64,000 bases of DNA from Patescibacteria group bacterium (GCA_018817715.1 JAHITT010000006.1:218804-282803); one strand, 5' to 3'. Numbered from the stretch's first letter, positions 5,394-61,353 are shown. Translations and numbers: made by a program. The notes: generated by a model not told the origin, from the letters alone.

Positions 5394-8300
5394 CTAGCGA
5401 ATAATTGATCCAGAAAACTTCCTTTCACCATGTTCCCTAGACGATCCATTACCAAACTCCACATAATTATCGCTAAACGAAGACTTGGGAATATCAGCTA
5501 CCAAATCCTGAACTGATTCCGAAACCTTGATATCAGGCAAAACTGACTGCAAGCGTTTGTTTAACAGTGCTGCGTCTAAGCCTACACTTGACATAGCCTC
5601 CTGAGAAACCGACACAGATATTTTAGCTTCGGGTATTTCTTTTTTTATGGATTTATATTTTTTAACAATCGATATAATATTACTGATAAGAATATCCGGC
5701 GACTTAGAGCCATAAACTCTATCCATTACAAAAGACATTTCCTGGTTTCCCGCGGTGTCCTTGGTAGGTACAAAAAATACTATCTCATCAGAAATACTAC
5801 CCTTATCTTTCTCGGTCTGGTTTATAATGAAAAATTTATTAGAGTCACCAAAAGCCAAATTAGTGTCATTGTTTATCTCCTTTCTTAGGCAACCCAAACA
5901 TTGACGCATATTTTCTATTATCAAATTCAAATCCTTAGTTAAATGACTAACCACCATAGTATTAGTACTCTCCGAAAAAACAATTTTCTCAATATCAGCC
6001 AAACGTTTTTTCAACAACTCATGATTCTCTAAATGACTACTTTTCTTTATTTTGATAAAATATTCTTTTACTTTATCTAAAGTGATCTCTAAATCTTTCA
6101 TTTTTTCTTTAATAGAAGAAAGATAATTATTAACTTCTTTTTTTTCTTCCAAACTTATCTTATTTTCATCCTTAACTACTAAATTTTCTAAATAAATAAT
6201 ATCTTTACCTAAAGCCAAAGCTCCCGATGTTTGGGTAAAACTTTCACCCAACCTATTAAATATCTCTATAATCTTTTGTGATGGCGTAAGTCTTTCCCCT
6301 AATTCATTGATATTTCTTTCTACTCCTTCTTCCTGCATTTTACTAATCATATTGGAAACTAAACTAAAAGGCTGTAACTTATCTTGCGTCTGCTTTATTT
6401 TTTCTTTAGTCCAACCACCTATCCCTAATATTTCCGCCAATCTCGCCTGCAAAGCTTTTTCCTTGTCATCAAGGGTTATATCTTTACCATCCAAACTACC
6501 ATAGACTTTAGCTAAAACGGCCCCCACTTGCCTCCCTTCTATCTGCAATATCCTCATAATTTCCTTATCTAATTTATCTGGATAAATATCGGGGTCGGCC
6601 AATTCATCAATATTTCTTTTAATATTGCCTAATTTAATATCTACTGTTTCAATACTACCTACTATACTACTCATAACTTCTTCTTGTAATAATTGCTGAA
6701 ACTCTTCAGCTTTATCCAAGCTAATACCAGCTACCTCCAAAGACAAAGAAGCTATCTTAGTTTTATTTTCTAAAATAGGTTTAACTAATTTTATTTGTTT
6801 ATCCGAAAGGTATTCTTCTAATATAATAGCTTTATTCTCGCGAAAATCAGACCATTTACTGTTCAATTCCAAACCTAAAAATAAAGCTACCAAAGCTTCT
6901 TTAGTTTCATTACGGTTATTAATATTTCCTATATAACGGACACAATTATGAACAGATCTTATATGTTCTTTAGTAAAATTTTCCGGAACATTTATAATAC
7001 CAAAACGTTCCTTAAAACTATTCTTAACAACTTCCACTAATCTTACTTTTTCTGCAGACAAACAATCAGCTTTTTCTTTTGGGCTATTTTTTAAATTATT
7101 TACTAACTCACGGATAGTCAATCTAACTCCAACCAAATCCTTAGCCTGATAACTTGGCTCGCCCTCATCATCTATTTTTTGCAAAATTATTAACTGCGCT
7201 TGGTATAAAGGCAAAAGTTCTGTTAAGACAATTTTCATTTCTTTAGCTGATAATTCAGCAAATAATGATTCAAAGGTTGTATATAAACTTGGTGCCGCCT
7301 CTATTATATCATGTGATAAATTATAAAATTCAGCCTTGTCATCTTGTGGCCATCTTTCCCGATTCATTCGATTTTCCTGATTTGTTAACAATTCTTTAAT
7401 TTCCTTAATTGTTCGACTGGCTGTGGATTTACTCCTAGAAACAACATTAAATTGATAGACTAAATTTCCTAAAGACTCAACATATTTTAATGTCCCCGCC
7501 CCACCCATCTGATCTATAAAATTAGTGACTGCTAATAAATTTAAAGGCACTATTTTATTATCGCCCTTCAAAAATTCTATCCATTCTTTATGCATACTAC
7601 CAAAAGCGGCATCTTTATAATCACTGTTAAATAAATTTAAAATCCTGGTTTTATTTTCCGAGGTCAGATTTAATTTATTTTCTTGCTCAGCTACGTCTAT
7701 ATAACTATACAAACCCGCCGGCCACTCATTATCTTGAAAATCAACTTTTTGCTGTCCTTCTAAACCAGGGATTTGCAAAACCTGCTCACATTTTTCCGGC
7801 GAATAATCTATCAAAATTTCGTATAATTCCTGAATTGAATAACTGTTGCCAAAATATTTTATGTGACTTTTTAATTTATTTATTATACCGGTTCGAATTT
7901 CTAACTCCTGCACCGAACACTCTTTTAAAGAATCATATATCCAAAGCCAATTATCCATTAAAATATCCTTATCTATCAGATTAATTATGTCTTTTATAAC
8001 ATTAATTTTTTCCGGATTATTGGCTACAGTTTTTAATATCTGATTATTTCTATATCCATCCCAAATACTTTTTAAATTATTAATAAATTCCACGGGTGTT
8101 TTAACTAAAACATCTTTTTCCTCTTGATCAGTTAATTTACCGTATAAAAAATCATATAAATCTGACGGCACCAATAAACCAGAATTGTCCGCCTGTCTTA
8201 ACCCTGTAACCAATTTATTATATCCTCGGGTGTCTACCGCTTTATCTAACTGACCATTATTCAAAAATACTACTATTTTACTTTCTAAAATTTTTTGTTT

Positions 8301-10643
8301 TACTTCGTCAATATTTATATTTATATCTTTTGAATACTTATCCTTATCCAACAAAGAATCAAAAGCTTTTTCTCTAAACTCTAAAGATAATCCCTCAAAT
8401 AAAGAACTTTTTTCTTTAAATAAACGATAAAGTTTATTAACATCACTGCTAGAATAAACATCTACCAAATTAACAAAATATTCATTTTCTATGTCTGGCC
8501 TCAACTGACCTGATATTTCAATCAAAGTTTCAATAGCATAAATACGTAAGTTAATCGACCTAGCAGTGTCTTTTAAAATCTCTTTATATTTATCTAAATT
8601 GCTATTTATAATCTCAATTGACTGTTGGTGGCCACTCCTTTTTATATCTCTTAATTTGGCCCAATTCTTACTTTCAAAAGCTTGTTCAATAATTTTTTCA
8701 CTATGGTTATCTAAACAAATTTTATTTTCCCCAATTAAATTAAAATTGCTAACAAATTTATTTATATTATTATAACCATCGGCATAGTTTATATAATTAC
8801 CCTCTTCAATTATTTTTGTTATAGAATTAATTACTTTATCTCTGGATAAACCAAAAATTTTTATAACCTCTTCAAAATAATTATCGGGTTTATTTTCATA
8901 ATCATTAGATGATAACACCAAATCTACCAACATTTTTTCTATGGCCGTACAAACTTCTTTATCAGCTGTAATAAAAAACTTATGCGTTTCCGGATAATAA
9001 TCATCTATAAACTTTTTAATGTCTTTGGCCTCTTTAAATGATCTTAACCTACTTTCATTACACAAAGCTTTTTTAACAGCCAAAGCTCTAGCCGACTTAT
9101 CTTCAGGTAACCAATCAAGGCTGAATTTACTGTCCATATGTTCCAAATCATCCAAATCAGCTAATTCTATCTTTGATAAATACAACTTTTTCAATCTTTC
9201 TTGGGTTTCCGAATTATTATCATTAAATTTCTCAATATTAAAATTCTTTAAAATCCTTTCAATTACATACTTATGATAATTATAACCAAGCAATTCAATA
9301 ACCCCTTTAACTAAAGCCTGCTTAAATTCTGCCTCGGTAAAACCAGCTTTAATTTTTAAATTATTTAAATTATCATAATTCACCCCGTTCTTATCCCTTA
9401 ACAAAAATTCCACAGCTACTTCAACGACCTTTTTAATTATATTGTCTGGAACGCCAATTTTTTTTAAAACACCAAAAGTATCATCTACCTTAAAATCAAA
9501 AGATAAACTATAAGCAATACCGTTTATAAAATTCTCGGTCTGGCCATAATTATTTATAATATCTAACCAATCTTCTGGTTTAAGAATATCTTGCGATCTC
9601 TCAATACTGTAAAAAATATACTCGTCAGCGCTTTTATCTTTTATTCTATCAATAAGATATTCTTTTTCCCTTAACCGTCTTTTTTCTCTTAACTCCTTAA
9701 AATCAAATTGATTTTCTTTAAGGGAAAAATAATTCAACAATCTTTCATCTTTATAACCCTCATTATTAATATAAGAATCTTCAAACTTATTAACGGCAGC
9801 TATTTTGGCTTTGTCAGAAGATAAAAAATCGTCAATGAATTTATAATGCTTTCTTAATTTATCACAGTCTTCTTGATTACTTATTTTTTCTCTCACTAAT
9901 TGATTTATAACAGATTGTTCGAATTCTTCTTCGGTAATATTAAAAATCTTCTTGTAATCCCCCAAAACATCTCGCTCATAATCATTATTTCCTCTAAACC
10001 AAAAAACATTATGCACTAATCCTTTTAAAGCCTTAGCTTTTATCTCTGGCAAATCAGCCTTGATACCAGAAGATTTAAAATCTCCAAAATTAATTTCTTC
10101 AATTGATTTTTCTCTACTTAAATTTTTTTCCCTATCCTCTTTTATATAACCATAATCATCTCTATTAATCCTGTCCTTATCATTAATAAGTTCGCCGTAC
10201 TCAATCCTATGCAACCAATTACTCTGCTTAAAGTTATTAAATAAATCGCTTTTAAAAAAAGCGTCGTCTATATCATAATATTTTTTAAAATCTAAAAGAA
10301 TGCCTTTATAACCACTAAGTCCATCTCCCGTCTTTAACATCCTTTCTACCTGTTTAACAACTAAATTCTTAACGTAATCTGATTTTATAACTTCTGGGGG
10401 AAATTTCTCAGCATAATCATTAATAGCATAAAGATTCGGGCGTAAAGAAGCTTTGTCTTCTTCGGTATAATTCAAATATTTAATGTATTTTCTAAGTTCT
10501 AACCTATCAGCTGGGGACAAATCAAAAGAATACAAGAAATCTTTTTCTTTCTTGCATTCTATATCTTTATTAAAATCTAGTTCCTCTTGTAAATCAGAAG
10601 GGTTATTTTTTATTGTTTCTTTACTAACCCCGTCCTTAAACAT
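5394..10643 (-). CDS. Giant hypothetical protein (1749 aa), acidic, K/E/D/N/I-rich, predicted soluble and alpha-helical, no recognizable domain
   Basis: Uninterrupted 5.25-kb ORF. Its ATG (10643-10641) lies 3 nt after the gyrB stop (10649-10647), so it is translationally coupled to gyrB. No Walker, HExxH, Cys-cluster or TM motifs detected by eye. Its GC is clearly lower than flanking gyrB/pheT. Confidence 0.7.
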   Translation of the reverse strand: MFKDGVSKETIKNNPSDLQEELDFNKDIECKKEKDFLYSFDLSPADRLELRKYIKYLNYTEEDKASLRPNLYAINDYAEKFPPEVIKSDYVKNLVVKQVERMLKTGDGLSGYKGILLDFKKYYDIDDAFFKSDLFNNFKQSNWLHRIEYGELINDKDRINRDDYGYIKEDREKNLSREKSIEEINFGDFKSSGIKADLPEIKAKALKGLVHNVFWFRGNNDYERDVLGDYKKIFNITEEEFEQSVINQLVREKISNQEDCDKLRKHYKFIDDFLSSDKAKIAAVNKFEDSYINNEGYKDERLLNYFSLKENQFDFKELREKRRLREKEYLIDRIKDKSADEYIFYSIERSQDILKPEDWLDIINNYGQTENFINGIAYSLSFDFKVDDTFGVLKKIGVPDNIIKKVVEVAVEFLLRDKNGVNYDNLNNLKIKAGFTEAEFKQALVKGVIELLGYNYHKYVIERILKNFNIEKFNDNNSETQERLKKLYLSKIELADLDDLEHMDSKFSLDWLPEDKSARALAVKKALCNESRLRSFKEAKDIKKFIDDYYPETHKFFITADKEVCTAIEKMLVDLVLSSNDYENKPDNYFEEVIKIFGLSRDKVINSITKIIEEGNYINYADGYNNINKFVSNFNLIGENKICLDNHSEKIIEQAFESKNWAKLRDIKRSGHQQSIEIINSNLDKYKEILKDTARSINLRIYAIETLIEISGQLRPDIENEYFVNLVDVYSSSDVNKLYRLFKEKSSLFEGLSLEFREKAFDSLLDKDKYSKDININIDEVKQKILESKIVVFLNNGQLDKAVDTRGYNKLVTGLRQADNSGLLVPSDLYDFLYGKLTDQEEKDVLVKTPVEFINNLKSIWDGYRNNQILKTVANNPEKINVIKDIINLIDKDILMDNWLWIYDSLKECSVQELEIRTGIINKLKSHIKYFGNSYSIQELYEILIDYSPEKCEQVLQIPGLEGQQKVDFQDNEWPAGLYSYIDVAEQENKLNLTSENKTRILNLFNSDYKDAAFGSMHKEWIEFLKGDNKIVPLNLLAVTNFIDQMGGAGTLKYVESLGNLVYQFNVVSRSKSTASRTIKEIKELLTNQENRMNRERWPQDDKAEFYNLSHDIIEAAPSLYTTFESLFAELSAKEMKIVLTELLPLYQAQLIILQKIDDEGEPSYQAKDLVGVRLTIRELVNNLKNSPKEKADCLSAEKVRLVEVVKNSFKERFGIINVPENFTKEHIRSVHNCVRYIGNINNRNETKEALVALFLGLELNSKWSDFRENKAIILEEYLSDKQIKLVKPILENKTKIASLSLEVAGISLDKAEEFQQLLQEEVMSSIVGSIETVDIKLGNIKRNIDELADPDIYPDKLDKEIMRILQIEGRQVGAVLAKVYGSLDGKDITLDDKEKALQARLAEILGIGGWTKEKIKQTQDKLQPFSLVSNMISKMQEEGVERNINELGERLTPSQKIIEIFNRLGESFTQTSGALALGKDIIYLENLVVKDENKISLEEKKEVNNYLSSIKEKMKDLEITLDKVKEYFIKIKKSSHLENHELLKKRLADIEKIVFSESTNTMVVSHLTKDLNLIIENMRQCLGCLRKEINNDTNLAFGDSNKFFIINQTEKDKGSISDEIVFFVPTKDTAGNQEMSFVMDRVYGSKSPDILISNIISIVKKYKSIKKEIPEAKISVSVSQEAMSSVGLDAALLNKRLQSVLPDIKVSESVQDLVADIPKSSFSDNYVEFGNGSSREHGERKFSGSIIR

Positions 10644-49977: not shown

Positions 49978-50363
49978 TGGTGGAGGTGACGGGGATTTGC
50001 ACCCCATGTCTAGCTACTAAGACAATATATTGGCTCCAGGTTCAGTACCGCTAAGTACCAAAAACGAATCAAGCGGTACCAAAGTTCGTTTTTGGATTGC
50101 CTTGAATTATCAAATCATTAAACGCAAGACAAACGCTTAACAATCGGCCCGATAAATGACATTCCCTTAGATTATCAGACATGTGTCCAAAGGAACGGCT
50201 AAAGCTTAATTAAGCTAAAGCTGGCGCAAAATTCAAAGAAGCAAAAGCTCCCTTAAACTTGCTGACAAATGACTTGGCATTTGTAAGAGTGCGATTTTTT
50301 ACGAGACCCGCCACTCGACCTGCTAACATATCACTTAATAACTATCGAATTGTAAACACCCCC
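49978..50363 (-). ncRNA. ssrA: tmRNA (SsrA)
   Basis: Minus strand 5' GGGGGUGUUUACAAUUCGAUAG... and 3' ...GGGGUGCAAAUCCCCGUCACCUCCACCA. A 7-bp acceptor stem pairs GGGGGUG with CACCUCC (one G-U), with T-arm and encoded CCA. Internal tag ORF GCC AAG UCA UUU GUC AGC AAG UUU AAG GGA GCU UUU GCU UCU UUG AAU UUU GCG CCA GCU UUA GCU UAA encodes (A)KSFVSKFKGAFASLNFAPALA*. CUCGUAAAAA precedes the tag region as in E. coli tmRNA. smpB is adjacent. Confidence 0.8.
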
Positions 50364-50418: not shown

Positions 50419-50865
50419 TTACTTTTTTAATGAACGACTTAACTCGCGCTTGGTTTCACGTTTTCTTAAAGCGTCCCTTTTATCATAACGCGTTTTTCCC
50501 CGCGCTACAGCTATTTCAAGTTTGATAAACCCGTGCCTAGTATAAACAGAAACGGGTACCACTGTCAAGCCTTTTTCCCTTTGTTTACCCAACAAATAAC
50601 CAAGCTCTTTGGCTTTAAGTAGTAGCTTGCGATCGCGAATCGGATCATAAGCCACTTGCCATCCCTTAGCGGGCGGATAAGCTGCAATATTAAGCCCGGT
50701 TATCCATAATTCGCCCTGTTTAGGTATTACATAAGCCCCATGCAAATTAATCCGACCGCCTTTAGCCGATTTTACTTCCGCACCTTCCAATACCAAACCG
50801 GCCTCGAATTTATCCAGGATTTGATAATCGTGTCGGACTTTTTTATTATCAGCTAAAATAGGCAT
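50419..50865 (-). CDS. smpB: SsrA-binding protein SmpB
   Basis: 148 aa. ...NKKVRHDYQILDKFEAGLVLEGAEVKSAKGGRINL... with a basic C-terminal tail, canonical SmpB. Immediately upstream of ssrA. Confidence 0.9.
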   Translation of the reverse strand: MPILADNKKVRHDYQILDKFEAGLVLEGAEVKSAKGGRINLHGAYVIPKQGELWITGLNIAAYPPAKGWQVAYDPIRDRKLLLKAKELGYLLGKQREKGLTVVPVSVYTRHGFIKLEIAVARGKTRYDKRDALRKRETKRELSRSLKK

Positions 50866-52793: not shown

Positions 52794-52839
52794 ATAACGT
52801 TACAGTTTTTTACTCTAGAACCTTAAAAAATAGTTGCTT

Positions 52840-52926
52840 GTCATTCTGAACAAAGTGAAGAATCTTATATTTGTTATTTTTGTATATTGCTTAAATTTAG
52901 AGATCCTTCGCTACGCTCAGGATGAC
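52840..52926. repeat. Hairpin repeat, family member B (26-nt inverted arms, 34-nt loop)
   Basis: gtcattctgaacaaagtgaagaatct (52840-52865) and its inverted partner agatccttcgctacgctcaggatgac (52901-52926). 20/26 complementary plus G-U pairs. Confidence 0.65.
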
Positions 52927-53657: not shown

Positions 53658-54437
53658 ATGACTAACCTTGAAATAATATTAATCGTAATTGCAAGTTCTT
53701 TGGTAATGTCTGGTTTAATCGGCCTAGCAATTTATCTTACACGCCGACAAAACCAAGACGATCTTAATAACACCAATCCTTGCCACGGACCATTACCAGT
53801 ACCCAACTCAAATATACACATACCGGAACAAAATATTCCATTAACAGCCTGGCTAAATATGTGCAACAGAAGACGTATGCCAGTTTGGGGATGGTTCATG
53901 ATTGGATTATTATTTGTTCTAACCGTTGTATTTTTATCATTATTTACTTTGGGCAACCAAACATCAGCCACTAACACTGAAAAACCTGAAGCTGTCACTA
54001 CTATCAATACTCCAGTTCCGGCACCATTACCTGTTCCACAATTTCCAAATGATTATGCAAAAAAAGCCGACGTTGATTCTGCAACAGCAAAAATAACCGG
54101 TGCGATATCGCAACATGATAAAAACTTAACTGACCACCGTCAATCTTCCGGCCGCGGATACGCCGCTGCCAAAAAACAACGCGAAGAAATTCTCACTGTT
54201 GTTAATGCAAATGGCGGTAAATTAGACAACATCTCAAAACAAGTCGCTGACCTTGACGCCAGTATCACCTTACTTAGGGGCGAACTCATCATAATGGTAG
54301 ATGAATTAAAAACCGCACTAGCCGATTCATCTACTACCCAAAAAATCAATTCCTTAACGGACGAAATTAACCAGCTCCGTTTACGAATTGAAACTTTGGA
54401 AAAACAAAAAAATAATCTAGTCGGCGACCCCGATTAA
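53658..54437 (+). CDS. Hypothetical membrane protein with Pro-rich linker and C-terminal coiled-coil
   Basis: 259 aa, two TM helices (IILIVIASSLVMSGLIGLAIYL; VWGWFMIGLLFVLTVVFLSLFTL), a PxP-rich segment (TPVPAPLPVPQFP), then heptad-like ...LDASITLLRGELIIMVDELKTALADS...INQLRLRIETLEKQKNNL. Confidence 0.5.
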   Translation: MTNLEIILIVIASSLVMSGLIGLAIYLTRRQNQDDLNNTNPCHGPLPVPNSNIHIPEQNIPLTAWLNMCNRRRMPVWGWFMIGLLFVLTVVFLSLFTLGNQTSATNTEKPEAVTTINTPVPAPLPVPQFPNDYAKKADVDSATAKITGAISQHDKNLTDHRQSSGRGYAAAKKQREEILTVVNANGGKLDNISKQVADLDASITLLRGELIIMVDELKTALADSSTTQKINSLTDEINQLRLRIETLEKQKNNLVGDPD

Positions 54438-54493: not shown

Positions 54494-54511
54494 CTTAAAT
54501 AACTGTATTAG

Positions 54512-54582
54512 AGATTCTTCGCTACGCTCAGAATGACGTTAGACAGTCATCCTGAACGAAGCGCTAGTGAAGTGAAGGATCT
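54512..54582. repeat. Hairpin repeat, family member C (26-mer plus inverted partner, 8-nt loop)
   Basis: agattcttcgctacgctcagaatgac (54512-54537), identical to the copy at 54908-54933 and 24/26 to the copy at 52901-52926. Partner gtcatcctgaacgaagcgctagtgaagtgaaggatct (54546-54582). Confidence 0.7.
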
Positions 54583-54584
54583 CG

Positions 54585-54866
54585 CTATTCAATTAAATCT
54601 CTAAATTCCGGATTAATCGTTTTAATTAAATCTATTTTTCTTTGCCTAGTCCAACCTTTTATTTTCTTTTCTACAGTAATAGCCTGCTGTGGCGAACTAA
54701 ACTCTTCAAAAAAGACTAATTTATTTACTTTATATTTATTGGTAAATCCAGGCACTAACTTATTCTTATGTTCATGCATCCGCCTATCTAAATTATTAGT
54801 CACTCCGGTATACAAAACCGTATTGCTTTTATTAGTAACAATATACACATAACAACGTTTAATCAT
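54585..54866 (-). CDS. GIY-YIG nuclease-superfamily small protein (YhbQ/UPF0213-like)
   Basis: 93 aa. CYVYIVTN...VLYTGVTNNLDRRMHEHKN contains the GIY, YIG, conserved Arg and Glu positions of the GIY-YIG fold. Flanked on both sides by identical 26-bp direct repeats. Confidence 0.8.
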   Translation of the reverse strand: MIKRCYVYIVTNKSNTVLYTGVTNNLDRRMHEHKNKLVPGFTNKYKVNKLVFFEEFSSPQQAITVEKKIKGWTRQRKIDLIKTINPEFRDLIE

Positions 54867-54907
54867 ACCCTCCTATGATTAATTATTAGACTGTTTTTTT
54901 AAAATTA

Positions 54908-55044
54908 AGATTCTTCGCTACGCTCAGAATGACAATGAAAATAAACGCAACGAAGAATAATAATAAAAATATAATACAGCTTAAAATGACAACAAAAAAA
55001 CCTGGCTCAGAATGACGACACAAATAAACGTGACTAAGAATGAC
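54908..55044. repeat. Hairpin repeat, family member D plus degenerate partial copies
   Basis: agattcttcgctacgctcagaatgac (54908-54933), degenerate partner ...cgcaacgaagaata (54945-54958), then partial cores aaaatgac (54984-90), gctcagaatgacg (55005-17), actaagaatgac (55033-44). Confidence 0.6.
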
Positions 55045-55069: not shown

Positions 55070-58000
55070 TTACTTTTCCTTTAATAATTTTTCGGCTTTT
55101 TCTATAGCATCTTGGGCTTTAAGCCTAGCTTCCAATTCCTCAGCCTGGCGAATAGCCTCCTGAGCGGCGATTTTAGATTTTTCTAAATCCGAATTAAGCT
55201 TAACAGATTCAACATTATTAATTTTATCATCTACAACAGCTGGCTTATCCACAATCTCAACCTGACTAACTGTTTGCTGAGGAGTTATTGACTGTTCCAC
55301 TGCCTGAACATTATCACCTTTAAAATGCCAACTAGCTAAAACGCCCTTTTTATCTACAAAATACTGATGCAAGTTCTCCCCAACCGTGCCACTATTAGCT
55401 CCTTGTAATTTAGGCTCCATATCATGAAACCAATTTTCTATGGTGGAATTATTATTAAACATTAAAAAACCTTTACCAAAATGATTTTCCAAACTAGAAA
55501 GTTTAAAATCTTTTACATCCATAGACATTATTTGTCTGGCTTCCTCGTTACTAAAATCCGCGCCTAATTTACTTAAAACAACCTGCTCATTCAAAGCTAT
55601 GCGATTGGCTATTTGTTTATTATCTAAATAAAAACTTTCATTAAAATGAGATTTATCTGCTATAGGCAATTCCACCGCCTTATTTAACAAAGGTGTTTTA
55701 ACATCAGCAATAAATTTATCTCCCTCAACAGTCCAGCCCAAATTTTTATCTGAACTATAAAACATTTTATCCACAAACCTGTAATCCACCGACTTAAAAC
55801 CATTACCTTTTATAGTTTGGCCTATTTCCCATAACTTATTAGCTTTGGTTGGTGATAAATCCGCTAAATTTGTTTTAGTTGACAAATAACTACCAAAATC
55901 CGTATCCCGCAAATACTGCGGCGCTTTACTACCCACGTGTTCGGCCAATTCAGTTATACGGCCGCTCTTAGCGCTTTGTAGGGTGGTTATTATATCGGCC
56001 TTATCTAATCCAGTATGACCAGCTGACCACTCAGCCACCAACAACTTATCGGCCGCTCCCCAATTTTGACCAGCTTCGCCTATAGCCTTGTCTACCTTAT
56101 CGATTGTTTGGTTAAAAATTTCATAAGATGATTGAACTTGGTTAGCATAATCATCACCATAATCAGCCGCATCTACTGAATAAAGTATTTCGTGACTTTG
56201 ACTGTCCACCAATAAACTACCTTTAGTGCCATCTTGACCCAAAAACTCATAAGCTGTTAAACCGCTATTACCGCCAGCTGGCATAGCCGTTTCCACTAAA
56301 CTTCCTTGTTTATATTCGCTGTTCCACCAATCTAGGTTTTCAGTTTTTATAGGCTCAACCTCAATAGTTTTAGGAATCGGCGCCTGCTGATACACATCTT
56401 GACTATCTAAACCCTGGCCAAATTCGTAATGGGCCTTGCCATCAGCCCCTATAACAAAACGAATTTGCTCGCCTTGAGCTGAACTTTTTAATCTTAATTC
56501 CCCTTGTTCAGTAACATAACCTTCATCTATAGCTGTTTGATGCGCTAACCTATTGGCAAATTCTCTAACAGCTTTGCTATTAGTTAAATCACCGTCAAAA
56601 CCGAATTTTTTAGGATTATCTAAAATCTGCTCAATAGCTTTGTGTTCTATACCCTCGCCCGAACCAACAGTTGCTATGTCTATATCTTTCTGCCAACGGA
56701 CAGTTATTTCTTCAGCTGTTGGCACCTTATTACCAGCAAACATTTCCGGATGGTTGGCTTTAAAATTCTGTAATAATTCCGGTGTCATTGATTGGCCATT
56801 AATTTTGGTATTTGATATTGCTTCATCCAAGGCGCGCAAATAATCAGCCTGGGTTTTTATAGTAGTCGCATCCGCTGTTTGTAAATCAGGAATCTTAAAA
56901 CCATATTTATGAGACAAAGCATCTATAACCGCACCGTCCTGCAAAGTACTTTCTGAAAATTGAGGCGAACTAGATTGATTTATTATTTCCGAAACATCTT
57001 GCGTTTTTGAACCACTGCTAAATAAATGCCCAGCGCCTTCTTTAACTAAACCACCCAAATAGGCAAACCCAGCACCTAAGGCAGCACCTTTGGTTATCTG
57101 CCATAATAATTTAGAGGCTTTGCGACTACCTACTATATCTTCATGTGTTTTAATAAAACTTTTTAGTCTTTGCTCAATAGTTAAACCATCCACATCCACC
57201 AATAATTTACTATCGCCAGCTACAACCGTCGTTTCCGCCAAACTTAAATATTTTAATAGTTCATATTTATTAAACAAATTTTTATCATTGGCGCCAAAAT
57301 CTATCAAACCCTTATCCAGTTTATCTTTGGTATAAAAAATTCTAGTTTTTAACAAACCTCTTAATTCCTGTTTCTTTTCCTCGTCAGCCGACTCGTAATC
57401 ATTTAATAATTTTTCTATTTTCCCCTTAGCCTGTTCAGCTGTGACAAAAGCCTTATCAGCTTTTTTTAAACCAGCTTCATATAATTGAGCATTTAAACGG
57501 CTACTTTCTTCTATGGCTTGCAAAATATTTCCATGTAATTCTCTTACTTCCTGGGGTATTTCGTGAGTGGGATCGTCTATATCGACCACATTACTAACCA
57601 ATTGTTTAACTTCCAGTAATTCTCGAGCCCTTACTAATCTTTCTTTATTAGCTTTAATTTTTTCCTTTAAATTTTTTTCGTCTTTAGAGGTAAAATCCAC
57701 ACCGCGTCGACGAGCTGATTCTGTTTCCGCCATATCCTGCTTAAACCTGCGCCAAGCCAAAGTAGCGCCTGAAGCAGCCGCTACCACTGGCGCTGCCCAA
57801 ACGCCTAAAGCACCCGCTACTAAGGCCCGACTACCCAAACCACCTAAAAAGTAAGTACCTCTTTCTGTGGCCACATTACCTAAAGCTTTAACCCAAAATT
57901 TATTCGAATCAACCTGCTTTAAAGCTTTCTCTATATTAGGGTTAGCTTTAAATAATCTTTCCATTTGTACCTGATAATCAATATCCTTGGTTGCCAAAGC

Positions 58001-59128
58001 GGCTTCTTTGTCATTACCCAACTTATCTTTTTTTAACTGCAACAAATCAGCTAAAGCCTGTTTGTAATCTTTCTTGGCTTGGCTGAATTCTTTTTGCTCT
58101 GTGCGACTAGCGGCTGGCAAAGACCATTCATAGGGTATTTTACTAAAAATCGTGGCTGCTTTATTAAAATTGGCTAATTTGGCCTGGTCAGTTGAATTTA
58201 ATTCTTGACGGCTACCACCAACCGCAACTTTAACATAGTCCTCAGCTCGACCCCCGTAAGATACTTCTATTTGCCCTAAACTATTAATTGTTGCATCCAA
58301 TCCACTATCCTTTATTATTGTTATTAAAGCTTCCATATCAGCCCGCTGCTCGGCCAAACCACCCTGTTTGGACTTGGTATATTTAACCTTGGTTTCCTTG
58401 GCTACATAATATTTTTTAAGCAGGTTTCTTTTAATTTTAGTAAAAAATTTAGATTCACCTGTTTCCTTCTTATAATCATCTAAAGCTTCACTTTTTATTC
58501 TGGATAAAGTCGTTTGCTTTAAATTTTCCAATAACAAAGCTTGCTGACCAACAGTTAAATCAACAAAACCGGGAACACTATTTAATTCTTCTGGTTTTAT
58601 GTTAAAAAATTTGGCAAACTCAACTGCTAACTTATCTGCTCTAACAACCTCTGGCGCCATTACCGGCTGAACCGGTTCGGCCTCCACAACCGACTGATCC
58701 ATTACTACTGGCTCCACCTGAGAAGAATTGTCCGTTTTTTTATCTACTGACGGCAAACCAACTTGATTTTTATATTCTTCCATAAAACCTTTTAAGGCTT
58801 TTCTAATCTCACTATTGGTAGTTCGCTTAATTTTATTCTTATCCAACCAATCTAAATCGTCTTTATTTAATTTACTTAACCCACCTTTTTTTAATATAGA
58901 AAAAGATTGATTATAATTTTCCTCGGTTAAAGGAATAATATTTATAACCCCTTTTAATTTCTCTGGCTCTTTCTCTTGACTAATTTTGGTAATATTATCA
59001 GCGGCCTGAACAAAAGCCTCATCAAAATCAGCCGGATTTACTTTGTCCACAGAACCACTGTTGGCAGAATCTTCCTTACCTTGATTAAGCAATTTGTTTA
59101 TCTCGTCTTGTGATAATATCTCAACCAT
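55070..59128 (-). CDS. Large hypothetical membrane-associated protein (1352 aa)
   Basis: Continuous 4.06-kb ORF. Two Gly/Ala-rich hydrophobic segments (GTYFLGGLGSRALVAGALGVWAAPVVAAASGATLAW at about aa 430; GAALGAGFAYLGGLVKEGAGHLF at about aa 690). C-terminal Ala/Glu/Lys coiled-coil (AAQEAIRQAEELEARLKAQDAIEKAEKLLKEK). No catalytic motif recognized. Confidence 0.65.
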   Translation of the reverse strand: MVEILSQDEINKLLNQGKEDSANSGSVDKVNPADFDEAFVQAADNITKISQEKEPEKLKGVINIIPLTEENYNQSFSILKKGGLSKLNKDDLDWLDKNKIKRTTNSEIRKALKGFMEEYKNQVGLPSVDKKTDNSSQVEPVVMDQSVVEAEPVQPVMAPEVVRADKLAVEFAKFFNIKPEELNSVPGFVDLTVGQQALLLENLKQTTLSRIKSEALDDYKKETGESKFFTKIKRNLLKKYYVAKETKVKYTKSKQGGLAEQRADMEALITIIKDSGLDATINSLGQIEVSYGGRAEDYVKVAVGGSRQELNSTDQAKLANFNKAATIFSKIPYEWSLPAASRTEQKEFSQAKKDYKQALADLLQLKKDKLGNDKEAALATKDIDYQVQMERLFKANPNIEKALKQVDSNKFWVKALGNVATERGTYFLGGLGSRALVAGALGVWAAPVVAAASGATLAWRRFKQDMAETESARRRGVDFTSKDEKNLKEKIKANKERLVRARELLEVKQLVSNVVDIDDPTHEIPQEVRELHGNILQAIEESSRLNAQLYEAGLKKADKAFVTAEQAKGKIEKLLNDYESADEEKKQELRGLLKTRIFYTKDKLDKGLIDFGANDKNLFNKYELLKYLSLAETTVVAGDSKLLVDVDGLTIEQRLKSFIKTHEDIVGSRKASKLLWQITKGAALGAGFAYLGGLVKEGAGHLFSSGSKTQDVSEIINQSSSPQFSESTLQDGAVIDALSHKYGFKIPDLQTADATTIKTQADYLRALDEAISNTKINGQSMTPELLQNFKANHPEMFAGNKVPTAEEITVRWQKDIDIATVGSGEGIEHKAIEQILDNPKKFGFDGDLTNSKAVREFANRLAHQTAIDEGYVTEQGELRLKSSAQGEQIRFVIGADGKAHYEFGQGLDSQDVYQQAPIPKTIEVEPIKTENLDWWNSEYKQGSLVETAMPAGGNSGLTAYEFLGQDGTKGSLLVDSQSHEILYSVDAADYGDDYANQVQSSYEIFNQTIDKVDKAIGEAGQNWGAADKLLVAEWSAGHTGLDKADIITTLQSAKSGRITELAEHVGSKAPQYLRDTDFGSYLSTKTNLADLSPTKANKLWEIGQTIKGNGFKSVDYRFVDKMFYSSDKNLGWTVEGDKFIADVKTPLLNKAVELPIADKSHFNESFYLDNKQIANRIALNEQVVLSKLGADFSNEEARQIMSMDVKDFKLSSLENHFGKGFLMFNNNSTIENWFHDMEPKLQGANSGTVGENLHQYFVDKKGVLASWHFKGDNVQAVEQSITPQQTVSQVEIVDKPAVVDDKINNVESVKLNSDLEKSKIAAQEAIRQAEELEARLKAQDAIEKAEKLLKEK

Positions 59129-59177
59129 ATTATTTATTACTTAATTATCTTAACAGATAATACTACAACTAAAATAA

Positions 59178-61040
59178 CTATTTGTCAATAATTAAAGGTA
59201 AGTTAACGGCCAAACACTTGCTTTTTTTCTGTTCCAAAATCTTTGGATGACTCATACCGTTAGCTATCTGATCTTTTAATAAAACAGACTGTTCAACTGG
59301 ATTTAAATGACTGTACTTTTGTTTAATAACCTGGCTAACCGATTCGGTAATGTATTCCTTAACTTCGGCGTCCAATATGTTTAAATGGGTTAATTCCTCT
59401 TCGTTTAAAGCCCGACTAAACCGCAAACCGTTATATTCAAATTTCTCTTGGGTAGATTCAACTTCTTTAGATTTAACCTGATTTTCGCCTGATAATTGGT
59501 AATCTGGTACTACAGCTTTAAGTAATTGTTCTAAACTAACTTTTTCTCCACCATTACCCGGACGCATAACCATTTGTTTATTTACTTTAAGGGCCCCGGG
59601 TAAATCAATATTAGCCAATAAATCGCTATTAGGTTTAAAACTGGTTACCAAATAACCACCTCGCTCAATATCATAATTTATAAAACCATCAAAACCATAG
59701 GCCCGGGCGGCCACAGCGCCACCAAACGATTTATCGCCTCTTTTATGTTGATTTAAAAATAATCTCCCCCAATCAGCCGCTACAATTAACTGCTTATTTT
59801 TAATAAGCTCCTCGTCTGATTTGTTTAAAACCTGATCAGCTTGTTTAATTATACTAACTTGTTCTTGACCTACTTTATCTAACTTTAACAATACTTCTTC
59901 TTTTTTATCGTTATTAATAATTTTTTCCAATAACGTTTTATCTAGCGGTTCGTTTAACAATTCACCATCCAGCTCCACTTGCTGTTTTTTGTTTAAAGGT
60001 AATCGCCATTTTTTTAATTCTAAAAACCTGTTTATTCTCTCCTTAACATAAAGATACTCCTGCTGTTGATTAAGCGCCCGGTGCAACCCACGCAAACTTA
60101 AATTACTACTGCGCCAATCTTCCTTGGTTTTTATTAAGTCATAATGCATGGACTTAGTGGCCAAATCCACTATGACCCGCAAAGCCTCATCTTTATTTTT
60201 TAAAATACCTTGCTCCTGTAAAACCTTATATAATACTTCAGCCGAAGAAGTTTCTTGAGCCGCTTTAACTAAACCATTATTTAATTCATTTAGCTCTTCA
60301 TTATCACTAGTTAATTCCGGTTTAGTCCAATTATTAAGTAAAGCATTTTCTAAACCAGTTTTTTTTATCAGCAATAAAACCGCTTTGGCATTACTATCAG
60401 ACGTATCTTTAAGATAAACAATTGGCTGATTATTTCTTTTTTTATCAACTGTTTTTTGCCAGCGGCCACTATCAACAAAATAACACCACAAACTCTCGGT
60501 GGCTCTAACAGTTTTGTCCAACAATTCCGGTTTTTCTTTAAAGGCCGCTTGATTAAATTCTTGGCCCAACCAAGCCGACATTTTTTTATTTAGATTAACC
60601 AAAGAAAAATCTGCTTCCGGCTTAATGGCTGGCGATTCTTTTTCCCTGATTGTATTCATAAGCTCCTGCCGTCTAGCCTCCCAAGGTAATTCTTTTGCAG
60701 TTGGCTCAGACCGAAGATTTTCGTAATAAGCTGCTTCCTCAAACAAAGCCGCAGCTTGATCACCTAAAACATTCCTACCTTGTCTTAATTCTTCGATCTT
60801 AGTTTGATAATCCGTATAAAATTGTTGTTTAACTTCTACGGGAATGGTTTGGGCTTTATCAGGCCCAAAAACCGTTTCTATAAATTTATCAACTGATTCA
60901 TTATTAACGCTTAAACCAGTCCAAAGGTTATCATTAAAGGATGTATCTAAAGAATCAACCAACCAAGCATATTCCGAACTTTGTCTAATTTGTTCAGTGG
61001 TTTTATAAACTTCCTGATTGTCTAAATTTTCTTTTTTCAT
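59178..61040 (-). CDS. Large hypothetical protein (620 aa), soluble, no recognizable domain
   Basis: ORF immediately upstream of, and co-oriented with, the 1352-aa gene (49-nt gap). No signal peptide or TM. Acidic and helical. Confidence 0.6.
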   Translation of the reverse strand: MKKENLDNQEVYKTTEQIRQSSEYAWLVDSLDTSFNDNLWTGLSVNNESVDKFIETVFGPDKAQTIPVEVKQQFYTDYQTKIEELRQGRNVLGDQAAALFEEAAYYENLRSEPTAKELPWEARRQELMNTIREKESPAIKPEADFSLVNLNKKMSAWLGQEFNQAAFKEKPELLDKTVRATESLWCYFVDSGRWQKTVDKKRNNQPIVYLKDTSDSNAKAVLLLIKKTGLENALLNNWTKPELTSDNEELNELNNGLVKAAQETSSAEVLYKVLQEQGILKNKDEALRVIVDLATKSMHYDLIKTKEDWRSSNLSLRGLHRALNQQQEYLYVKERINRFLELKKWRLPLNKKQQVELDGELLNEPLDKTLLEKIINNDKKEEVLLKLDKVGQEQVSIIKQADQVLNKSDEELIKNKQLIVAADWGRLFLNQHKRGDKSFGGAVAARAYGFDGFINYDIERGGYLVTSFKPNSDLLANIDLPGALKVNKQMVMRPGNGGEKVSLEQLLKAVVPDYQLSGENQVKSKEVESTQEKFEYNGLRFSRALNEEELTHLNILDAEVKEYITESVSQVIKQKYSHLNPVEQSVLLKDQIANGMSHPKILEQKKSKCLAVNLPLIIDK

Positions 61041-61126
61041 TAAAGGAATTTTAAACCTATTATCTTCTCTAATTTTAGCCTATTACCATAAGACAGGCAA
61101 TTATTTTACACGCTTTTCCAAAAGGC

Positions 61127-61155
61127 TTGAAAGGTTTAAAAACCTATGCTATATT
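61127..61155 (+). promoter_or_regulatory. Candidate sigma70-like promoter for tRNA-Asp
   Basis: TTGAAA (61127-61132), 17-nt spacer, TATATT (61150-61155), about 95 nt upstream of the tRNA. Confidence 0.35.
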
Positions 61156-61251
61156 GGCAAAGCTTATTTAGTTTTTGCCCCATTTTTAAAACTAGATAAA
61201 TTCCATACTAAACGGGATTGAATTTAAAAAATAAATACTTACGTACTAAGC

Positions 61252-61326
61252 GGGCTCGTGGTGTAGCCCGGTTAACACGTCTCCCTGTCACGGAGAAGAT
61301 CGCCGGTTCGAATCCGGTCGGGCCCG
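61252..61326 (+). tRNA. tRNA-Asp (anticodon GUC)
   Basis: Manual cloverleaf: acceptor GGGCTCG/CGGGCCC (one T-G), U8, D-stem GTGT/ACAC, anticodon stem TCTCC/GGAGA with loop CTGTCAC (GTC), T-arm GCCGG-TTCGAAT-CCGGT, discriminator G. CCA is not encoded. Confidence 0.85.
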
Positions 61327-61353
61327 CTTAGTACGTAAAACCAAAAAAAGGTT

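Follow-up and report, generated by a model that had tools for sequence, protein, structure and literature searches.

The closest described counterparts of the gene pair studied here are EzrA of the Firmicutes, the membrane components associated with type IV coupling proteins (T4CPs; VirD4/TrwB/PcfC, in type IV secretion systems (T4SSs) of the Gram-positive type), phage tape-measure proteins, and hydrophobic helical-hairpin anchors such as the colicin pore-forming domain and reticulon- or caveolin-like hairpins. The pair, referred to as genes A and B, lies in a 64,000-nucleotide stretch of a Patescibacteria group bacterium (GCA_018817715.1, JAHITT010000006.1:218804-282803), which was analyzed as a whole and is called the window. 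Patescibacteria, which live attached to other cells, account for a large part of bacterial diversity. To our knowledge, most of their envelope proteins are without a known function.

EzrA and B are alike in combining a membrane anchor, predicted in the case of B, with a large cytoplasmic domain of long helices, and some B homologues adjoin division/cell-wall (dcw), divIC, or ftsK genes. However, no sequence match or significant fold match connects the two, and EzrA has one N-terminal transmembrane helix and no extracellular part, whereas the hairpin of B is internal and is joined by another hydrophobic helix and by a variable C-terminal region of ~650 residues. The likeness to T4CP-associated membrane components is one of gene context, as B homologues recur beside genes for TrwB-like ATPases; A and B nevertheless match no VirB or Prg profile, and B is not polytopic like VirB6 or PrgH. 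The window open reading frames (ORFs) scanned, which did not include every small ORF, contained no virB4, pilin, or T4CP genes and were housekeeping genes (aminoacyl-tRNA synthetases, ATP synthase, gyrB, clpB, lgt, dsbA, and others). Phage tape-measure proteins resemble B in being long and helical with Gly/Ala-rich hydrophobic segments, but B has no PHROG match, no homologue on viral contigs, and no tail-gene context, and its chromosomal position is conserved. Going by their general description, the hairpin anchors may share with B an Ala/Gly-rich hairpin of ~33 residues with a central helix breaker and amphipathic flanking helices; no homology was detected, and the hairpin of B differs in its near-invariant Arg and in its position in the middle of a conserved 540-aa module. 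The locus is laid out as follows:

59178..61040, minus strand: gene A, ORF of 620 aa (NCBI MBU1039439.1, KKC17_04435, hypothetical protein)
59129..59177, minus strand: A-B spacer of 49 nt, without a terminator-like site and with one sigma-70-like match at chance level
55070..59128, minus strand: gene B, ORF of 1352 aa (NCBI MBU1039438.1, KKC17_04430, hypothetical protein)
61252..61327, plus strand: tRNA-Asp(GTC), divergent from A; boundary of the module and outside it

These ORFs bear out the original prediction of two co-oriented genes that are separated by a short gap without a terminator and divergent from a tRNA gene. A consensus scan of the region found no terminator-like site in the A-B gap; the three such sites on the minus strand all lay within coding regions, and the overall number of terminator-like sites was at chance level (8 found vs 5.0 +/- 2.3 expected). 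Promoter-like matches over the whole region were likewise at chance level. Over the window, GC content is even (~0.35-0.39) and the GC skew stays negative; the contig that carries both genes measures 531 kb. Upstream of the pair are lgt and two dsbA-like genes, and the order dsbA-dsbA-lgt-A-B...smpB-infC-rplT-argS is common to the window and the B-homologue loci L028 and L032. Since the whole surrounding block is syntenic in other genomes, the A-B locus belongs to the core genome, and the placement of the pair next to a repeat-rich accessory locus was not upheld: what lies there are a few dispersed ~30-nt hairpin repeats around a GIY-YIG gene.

Our preferred reading, which we hold tentatively, is that B is a Patescibacteria-restricted transmembrane scaffold whose module docks other machinery and whose outer part is variable, with A as a lineage-specific cytoplasmic partner from the same operon. 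In one Patescibacteria lineage, A and B would be a two-gene operon passed on vertically, and a ~540-residue all-helical module would define the B family. The N-terminal ~425 residues of B would reside in the cytoplasm; a Gly/Ala-rich hairpin (aa 427-459) would dip into the membrane and come back to the cytoplasm, followed by a helical region of ~220 residues, and a short hydrophobic helix (aa 681-695) would place the remaining ~650 residues, an acidic and fast-evolving C-terminal region, at the cell surface. The conserved cytoplasmic module may dock cytoplasmic or membrane machinery of the kind encoded beside B in other lineages, i.e., TrwB/VirD4-like and FtsK ATPases, dcw division/cell-wall genes, and envelope glycosyltransferases, and the variable outer part may face the wall or a host cell. 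A is probably a soluble, lineage-specific partner in the cytoplasm that binds the cytoplasmic module of B. The gene structure, the conserved pairing, the size of the B family, the confident helical model, the lack of known relatives, and the neighborhood patterns are observations; the topology of B, its interaction with A, and the scaffold role are what we infer from them. Of the undescribed membrane-associated system that had been proposed for the locus, a conserved pair of undescribed proteins with a putatively membrane-anchored B stands, with A being only lineage-specific; nothing shows an envelope-spanning machine. B has one hairpin and one short hydrophobic helix.

B can be divided into the following parts (pLDDT, predicted local distance difference test of the AlphaFold2 model):

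58634..59128, minus strand: B aa 1-165, variable N-terminal extension, charged and of low complexity, common only with a 75%-identical relative (P0002)
57029..58633, minus strand: B aa 166-700, conserved family module, modelled as all-helical (alignments A1, A3, and A4; pLDDT ~90-97)
57752..57850, minus strand: B aa 427-459, Gly/Ala-rich hydrophobic helical hairpin (Gly 16%, Ala 27%)
57044..57088, minus strand: B aa 681-695, GAALGAGFAYLGGLV, the second hydrophobic stretch (putative third membrane pass), whose 15 residues close a helix of 53 residues
55199..56992, minus strand: B aa 713-1310, variable C-terminal region of acidic character (net charge -31) in which Ser, Thr, Gln, and Asn are abundant
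55073..55198, minus strand: B aa 1311-1352, terminal coiled-coil-like helix (Ala 19%, Glu 19%, Lys 17%), modelled as one helix (pLDDT ~88)

The AlphaFold2 model covers residues 153-1352 and was built from a 64-sequence alignment. Its residues 10-550 (B ~162-702) were predicted with high confidence (pLDDT ~90-97) and are nearly all long helix, with one small beta element. Within this module, which carries the motifs LENLKQxTLxRI, KKYYxAK, IPYEWSL, ERGxY, and xNFG..NxYxL, the hairpin reads FLGGLGSRALVAGALGVWAA-P-VVAAASGATLAW and appears as a helix-turn-helix (model helices 257-289 and 293-322), with a near-invariant Arg in the first arm, a near-invariant Pro at the turn, and RRFK...RRR thereafter. 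Both the hairpin and the second hydrophobic stretch are present in all B homologues examined. The region of aa 713-1310 is homologous only inside the subclade of B proteins that are paired with A, and was modelled as small alpha/beta domains (pLDDT 30-80). Where two Gly-rich hairpins had been predicted, the first segment is indeed a two-arm hairpin around a conserved Pro, whereas the second is a single stretch of 15 residues that ends a long helix; the predicted Ala/Glu/Lys coiled coil at the terminus agrees with the composition and the single modelled helix of aa 1311-1352. Self-BLAST detected no internal repeats in B, and Tandem Repeats Finder reported one 13-nt array of 1.9 copies (57652-57676). 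B contains no Cys, although DsbA-like genes adjoin.

Neither protein could be assigned, as had been anticipated. Searches of A and of B against Pfam, NCBIfam, PHROGs, and PADLOC returned nothing meaningful even with thresholds relaxed to 10, and neither matched PDB chains by sequence or by profile. The predicted fold of B had no significant match among solved structures in the PDB; the best, weak matches were spectrin, actinin, and coiled-coil proteins. No published description of the B family was found in the literature. The family is therefore undescribed, in that no relative is detectable by sequence, or by fold in comparison with the PDB, with the tools used.

A search of the core alignment A1 against 1.84 billion representative proteins yielded 843 clusters (50% identity) at E<=1e-3, of which 623 also passed E<=1e-30, the proteins being 546-2933 aa long; a word-index search with B gave seven relatives only, the shared span being residues ~170-700. 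The B protein of the window aligns end to end with the family profile over the ~540-aa module, whose family motifs also include GAxFAxxG in the second hydrophobic segment, and most of these motifs fall on invariant or near-invariant columns. Near-invariant positions comprise the N and Q of LENLKQ, the E-W of IPYEWSL, the E-x-G-x-Y right before the hairpin, the Arg and Pro of the hairpin, the Gly of xNFG, and the Gly/Ala of the second hydrophobic stretch; at the xNFG motif, the window protein reads IDFG, so that the Asn is not kept. Outside the module, the family is highly variable in length, with N-terminal extensions of 0-1186 aa (median 146) and C-terminal extensions of 0-1490 aa (median 428). 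Among 28 long members screened for fused Pfam domains, one fusion was informative, i.e., a YkuD L,D-transpeptidase domain at the far C-terminus of P0140, and the others were coiled-coil noise. All taxonomically informative labels belonged to Patescibacteria (Falkowbacteria, Moranbacteria, Lloydbacteria, Saccharibacteria, and 'Patescibacteria group'), and the family appears to be confined to this group. A few third-party annotation (TPA) records of metagenome-assembled genomes (among L009, L014, L020, L025, and L027) are titled Gammaproteobacteria or Bdellovibrionales, which are probably mislabels of these bins. Three loci carry tandem pairs of B-family paralogues (L019:69-9179, L022:9560-18877, and L026:6671-18819) with a very divergent second copy of 1721-2274 aa; the copies in L026 are separated by a 532-aa ORF.

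The neighbors of B homologues were clustered for 26 distinct loci, which had been retrieved by motif patterns, so that the sample may be biased. The most common neighbor was a TrwB/VirD4-like ATPase, adjacent to B in 7/26 loci (L012, L016, L018, L022, L024, L025, and L026; e.g., L012:13333-15801). These ATPases comprise 822-1157 aa, with the Pfam domains TrwB_AAD_bind and TraG-D_C and the Walker A motif GQTGTGKS, are 43-63% identical to the L012 protein, and match TrwB by profile at E 1.4e-6. Three separate B clades have them, and their position takes three forms: immediately downstream of B, downstream with a ~140-aa ORF in between, or immediately upstream of B. A bona fide FtsK is encoded 16-18 nt upstream of B in L020 and L027, mraZ-mraW-(ftsL-like)-ftsI follow downstream of B in L011, L014, L015, and L023 (two clades), and divIC lies upstream of B in L029. 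Genes for envelope functions are also represented: PMT_2 (GT-C) glycosyltransferases stand divergently upstream of B in five loci, and B is flanked by GT4, Wzy_C, and DUF4012 in L004-7. DUF4012 and MdbA-like thiol oxidoreductases are among the envelope families enriched in the candidate phyla radiation (PMC6744442).

This neighborhood would also suit an alternative in which the B family is the membrane partner of orphan VirD4/TrwB-like ATPases in a T4SS-independent apparatus for DNA or protein translocation, with A as an adaptor or substrate. FtsK, found directly upstream in two further loci, belongs to the same ATPase superfamily, and no virB4 was present among the ORFs examined next to the B-adjacent TrwB-like ATPases. 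Moreover, 5,713 VirD4-like genes have been counted in Patescibacteria, just 148 of them near virB4, and exaptation is considered possible (PMC12102498). On the other hand, 19/26 loci have no TrwB-like ATPase, none adjoins B in the window or in the other A-paired loci, and B resembles no known T4SS component, all of which makes this alternative unlikely in our view. A more specific version, in which B is the missing membrane partner of both orphan VirD4/TrwB-like and FtsK-like ATPases in a minimal T4SS-independent system that carries DNA or proteins through the envelope of these epibionts, with the fast-evolving outer domain contacting the host and A serving as a lineage-specific cytoplasmic adaptor, appears less probable still. 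Further observations concern the same loci: a conserved ~140-aa ORF without a Pfam match lies between B and the TrwB-like ATPase in three of them, and a recurrent family of 758-842 aa, also without a Pfam match, is encoded on the opposite strand near B (L011:6143-8446, L012:15912-18440, L015:5599-7908, and L023:852-3128, all minus strand).

Coming back to the transmembrane scaffold, the topology assigned to it was derived from hydropathy and charge. The ~425-residue N-terminal part should be cytoplasmic, because a hydropathy scan found no hydrophobic segment before aa 427, which is in line with the ~420-aa cytoplasmic-looking N-terminal region described originally; the membrane anchoring of B is likewise supported, as a prediction, by the hydropathy and charge pattern. 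Five Lys/Arg within 15 residues follow the hairpin (RRFKQDMAETESARR) and two precede it, which fits a hairpin with both ends inside. Past the second hydrophobic stretch, Lys+Arg drop to 9.5% and the net charge is -31, compared to 17-18% Lys+Arg in the regions on the N-terminal side. Furthermore, in P0140 the YkuD domain comes after the core, towards the C-terminus, and no additional hydrophobic segment is present. The change in charge and composition and the YkuD fusion favor a C-terminus outside the cell.

B could instead be monotopic, held on the cytoplasmic face of the membrane by re-entrant anchors with its C-terminus inside, and might act as a cytoskeletal or division scaffold by analogy to EzrA or DivIVA. 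The short hydrophobic elements (13-20 and 15 residues) would agree with this, as would the long-helix fold with its weak matches to spectrin, actinin, and coiled-coil proteins, the dcw genes, divIC, and ftsK among the neighbors, and the lack of Cys despite the adjoining DsbA-like genes. We regard this arrangement as doubtful, given that the contrast in charge and composition over the second segment and the P0140 fusion favor an outside C-terminus, and that a C-terminal region varying to such an extreme degree is more typically exposed at the surface.

For the protein encoded by gene A, no hydrophobic segment was detected by the hydropathy scan, and it is soluble by this measure. One region is shared by its relatives:

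59481..60593, minus strand: conserved region of A, aa ~150-520, common to all A homologues (alignments A5 and A9)

This region contains the motifs W..F....W, D-x-[DN]-A-[KR], ETSSAE, LRGL, and GG...A.AYG. It matches the L028 protein by BLASTP at E 8e-36, and the L028 and L032 homologues by hhalign with probabilities of 100 and 99.9. A has no internal repeats (self-BLAST gave the identity match alone) and is not related to B (hhalign probability 0.4%), and its single-sequence AlphaFold2 model was unusable (pLDDT 37). A is rare, and protein searches with it, including the word-index search, returned A alone. The A homologues of L001 and L032 have D-L-D-A, D-N-H, and (G/A)GH at matching columns, resembling the catalytic motifs of DHH/DHHA1 proteins, which we take to be DxD, DHH, and GGGH; at these columns, the window protein is degenerate, with D-S-N-A, a deletion in place of DNH, and GGA. 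A DHH/DHHA1 phosphoesterase identity is at most a tentative lead, and the motif resemblance in two homologues has no statistical support: five A homologues and their profiles gave no match to DHH (PF01368), DHHA1 (PF02272), or solved DHH proteins at E<=10.

Relatives of A were found by translated searches of the DNA around B homologues. Every A homologue found, from six lineages, lies upstream of and co-oriented with a B homologue, and the pair does co-occur outside the window, the absence of which would have spoken against the original prediction. The homologues comprise 767 aa with 26% identity in L001/L009, 881 aa with 23% identity in L010, 1353 aa in L028, and 903 aa in L032/L033; in L002/L008, the contig covers no more than the last 45 residues (60% identity). 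An A-based search of metagenome contigs added L034-L036, where the B homologue starts 34 nt downstream in all three; L034 and L035 represent two additional contigs from the L032-type lineage, and L036 and L033 are a single contig. Where A and B are adjacent, the gaps measure 26-49 nt. The B proteins of A-paired loci share the C-terminal region and form one clade in a rough neighbor-joining (NJ) tree, and a hidden Markov model of the A family had no match in the other ~18 B loci. As A is limited to one B subclade and B mostly occurs without A, conservation lies with B, to which A is a lineage-specific addition.

Whether adjacency reflects a joint function was weighed against simple inertia, i.e., A and B being mere neighbors held together by slow rearrangement of a syntenic block. 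Part of the adjacency could indeed be due to inertia, because the whole block recurs in the window, L028, and L032; besides, B is commonly found without A, and two small ORFs intervene between A and B in L001. Nevertheless, adjacency, orientation, and short gaps have been kept while A identity fell to 20-29%, the pair persists in differing flanks (cysS and two radical-SAM genes in L010; LCAT-like and lectin genes in L001), and the independent A-based search gave only loci with B directly downstream. We therefore consider it rather improbable that the two genes have no joint function.

Several points weigh against the transmembrane scaffold. A YkuD fusion was seen in one protein only, and the second hairpin arm (~13 residues) and the last stretch (15 residues) are short for full membrane passes, so that B could be monotopic with its C-terminus inside. 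The block synteny common to most A-B loci weakens adjacency as functional evidence, the NJ tree of the B family is rough, and T4CP, FtsK, and dcw genes do not adjoin B in the window. Lastly, because no functional or structural homologue was found, the role is read from gene neighborhood and composition only.

An origin of B as a tape-measure-like relic of a phage or mobile element is largely refuted and highly improbable: although the top Foldseek matches in the viral model set BFVD are tape-measure and tail proteins, and B is closely followed by a GIY-YIG gene and dispersed repeats, these matches are not significant (best E 2.4e-3, template modelling score ~0.06), no PHROG match reaches below E 0.07, IMG/VR viral contigs contain no B homologue, the neighborhood contains no phage genes, B keeps a syntenic place in the chromosome, and GC content is even. 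Two further candidates were rejected. A repetitive surface adhesin is at odds with the absence of a signal peptide (by hydropathy scan only), tandem repeats, and adhesin Pfam domains, and no adhesin homology or internal repeats of the kind that would have spoken against the original prediction were found. A polymorphic toxin of the type VII secretion system (T7SS)/LXG kind is contradicted by the lack of an LXG/WXG Pfam match and by flanking genes that are a GIY-YIG gene (downstream) and A (upstream), not an EssC-type ATPase or immunity gene.

The analysis thus defines a large protein family of 843 clusters, with a confidently modelled helical fold that has no PDB match and a membrane hairpin with a near-invariant Arg, of which the A-B pair of the window is a lineage-specific elaboration. 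If the family does connect ATPase and division machines to the cell surface, it would offer a handle on the role of T4SS-independent coupling ATPases, and on the organization of envelope and division in reduced cells. The family is new in the sense of having no detectable relative with the tools used, not as a demonstrated new mechanism, its function being entirely inferred.

Downstream of B, a dispersed repeat of ~26-35 nt (AGATTCTTCGCTACGCTCAGAATGAC), whose direct and inverted copies can pair into hairpins, occurs at 52838-52926, 54508-54563, 54904-54933, and 55005-55041, and a 28-nt tandem of 2.2 copies spans 54985-55044. The small GIY-YIG nuclease gene (54585-54866) closely downstream of B has repeat copies on either side, and together they look like a small mobile or repetitive extragenic palindromic (REP)-like element. 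The AGATTCTTCGCTACGCTCAGAATGAC repeats are probably what had been described as the repeat-rich locus. At the corresponding place in L032, where the window has the GIY-YIG gene and small ORFs, a 1007-aa SPFH/Band_7 protein is encoded directly downstream of the B homologue (L032:12626-15649, minus strand).

Other features were also noted. A tmRNA gene (50000-50363, minus strand; Rfam 52.9 bits, E 1.2e-18) runs off the searched stretch and adjoins smpB (50419-50865); ARAGORN, applied to the whole window, reported the tRNA-Asp only and missed the tmRNA. A 1749-aa ORF without a Pfam match (5394-10643, minus strand) is dissimilar to B and matches A over 40 aa without significance (E 0.23). The FtsH gene of L003 (L003:1-1903, minus strand) has an Intein_splicing match and a faint LAGLIDADG match and may carry an intein. 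Between B and smpB, a 259-aa protein (53658-54437, plus strand) has hydrophobic stretches and a C-terminal coiled coil, with weak coiled-coil matches to DivIC and ZapB-like proteins.

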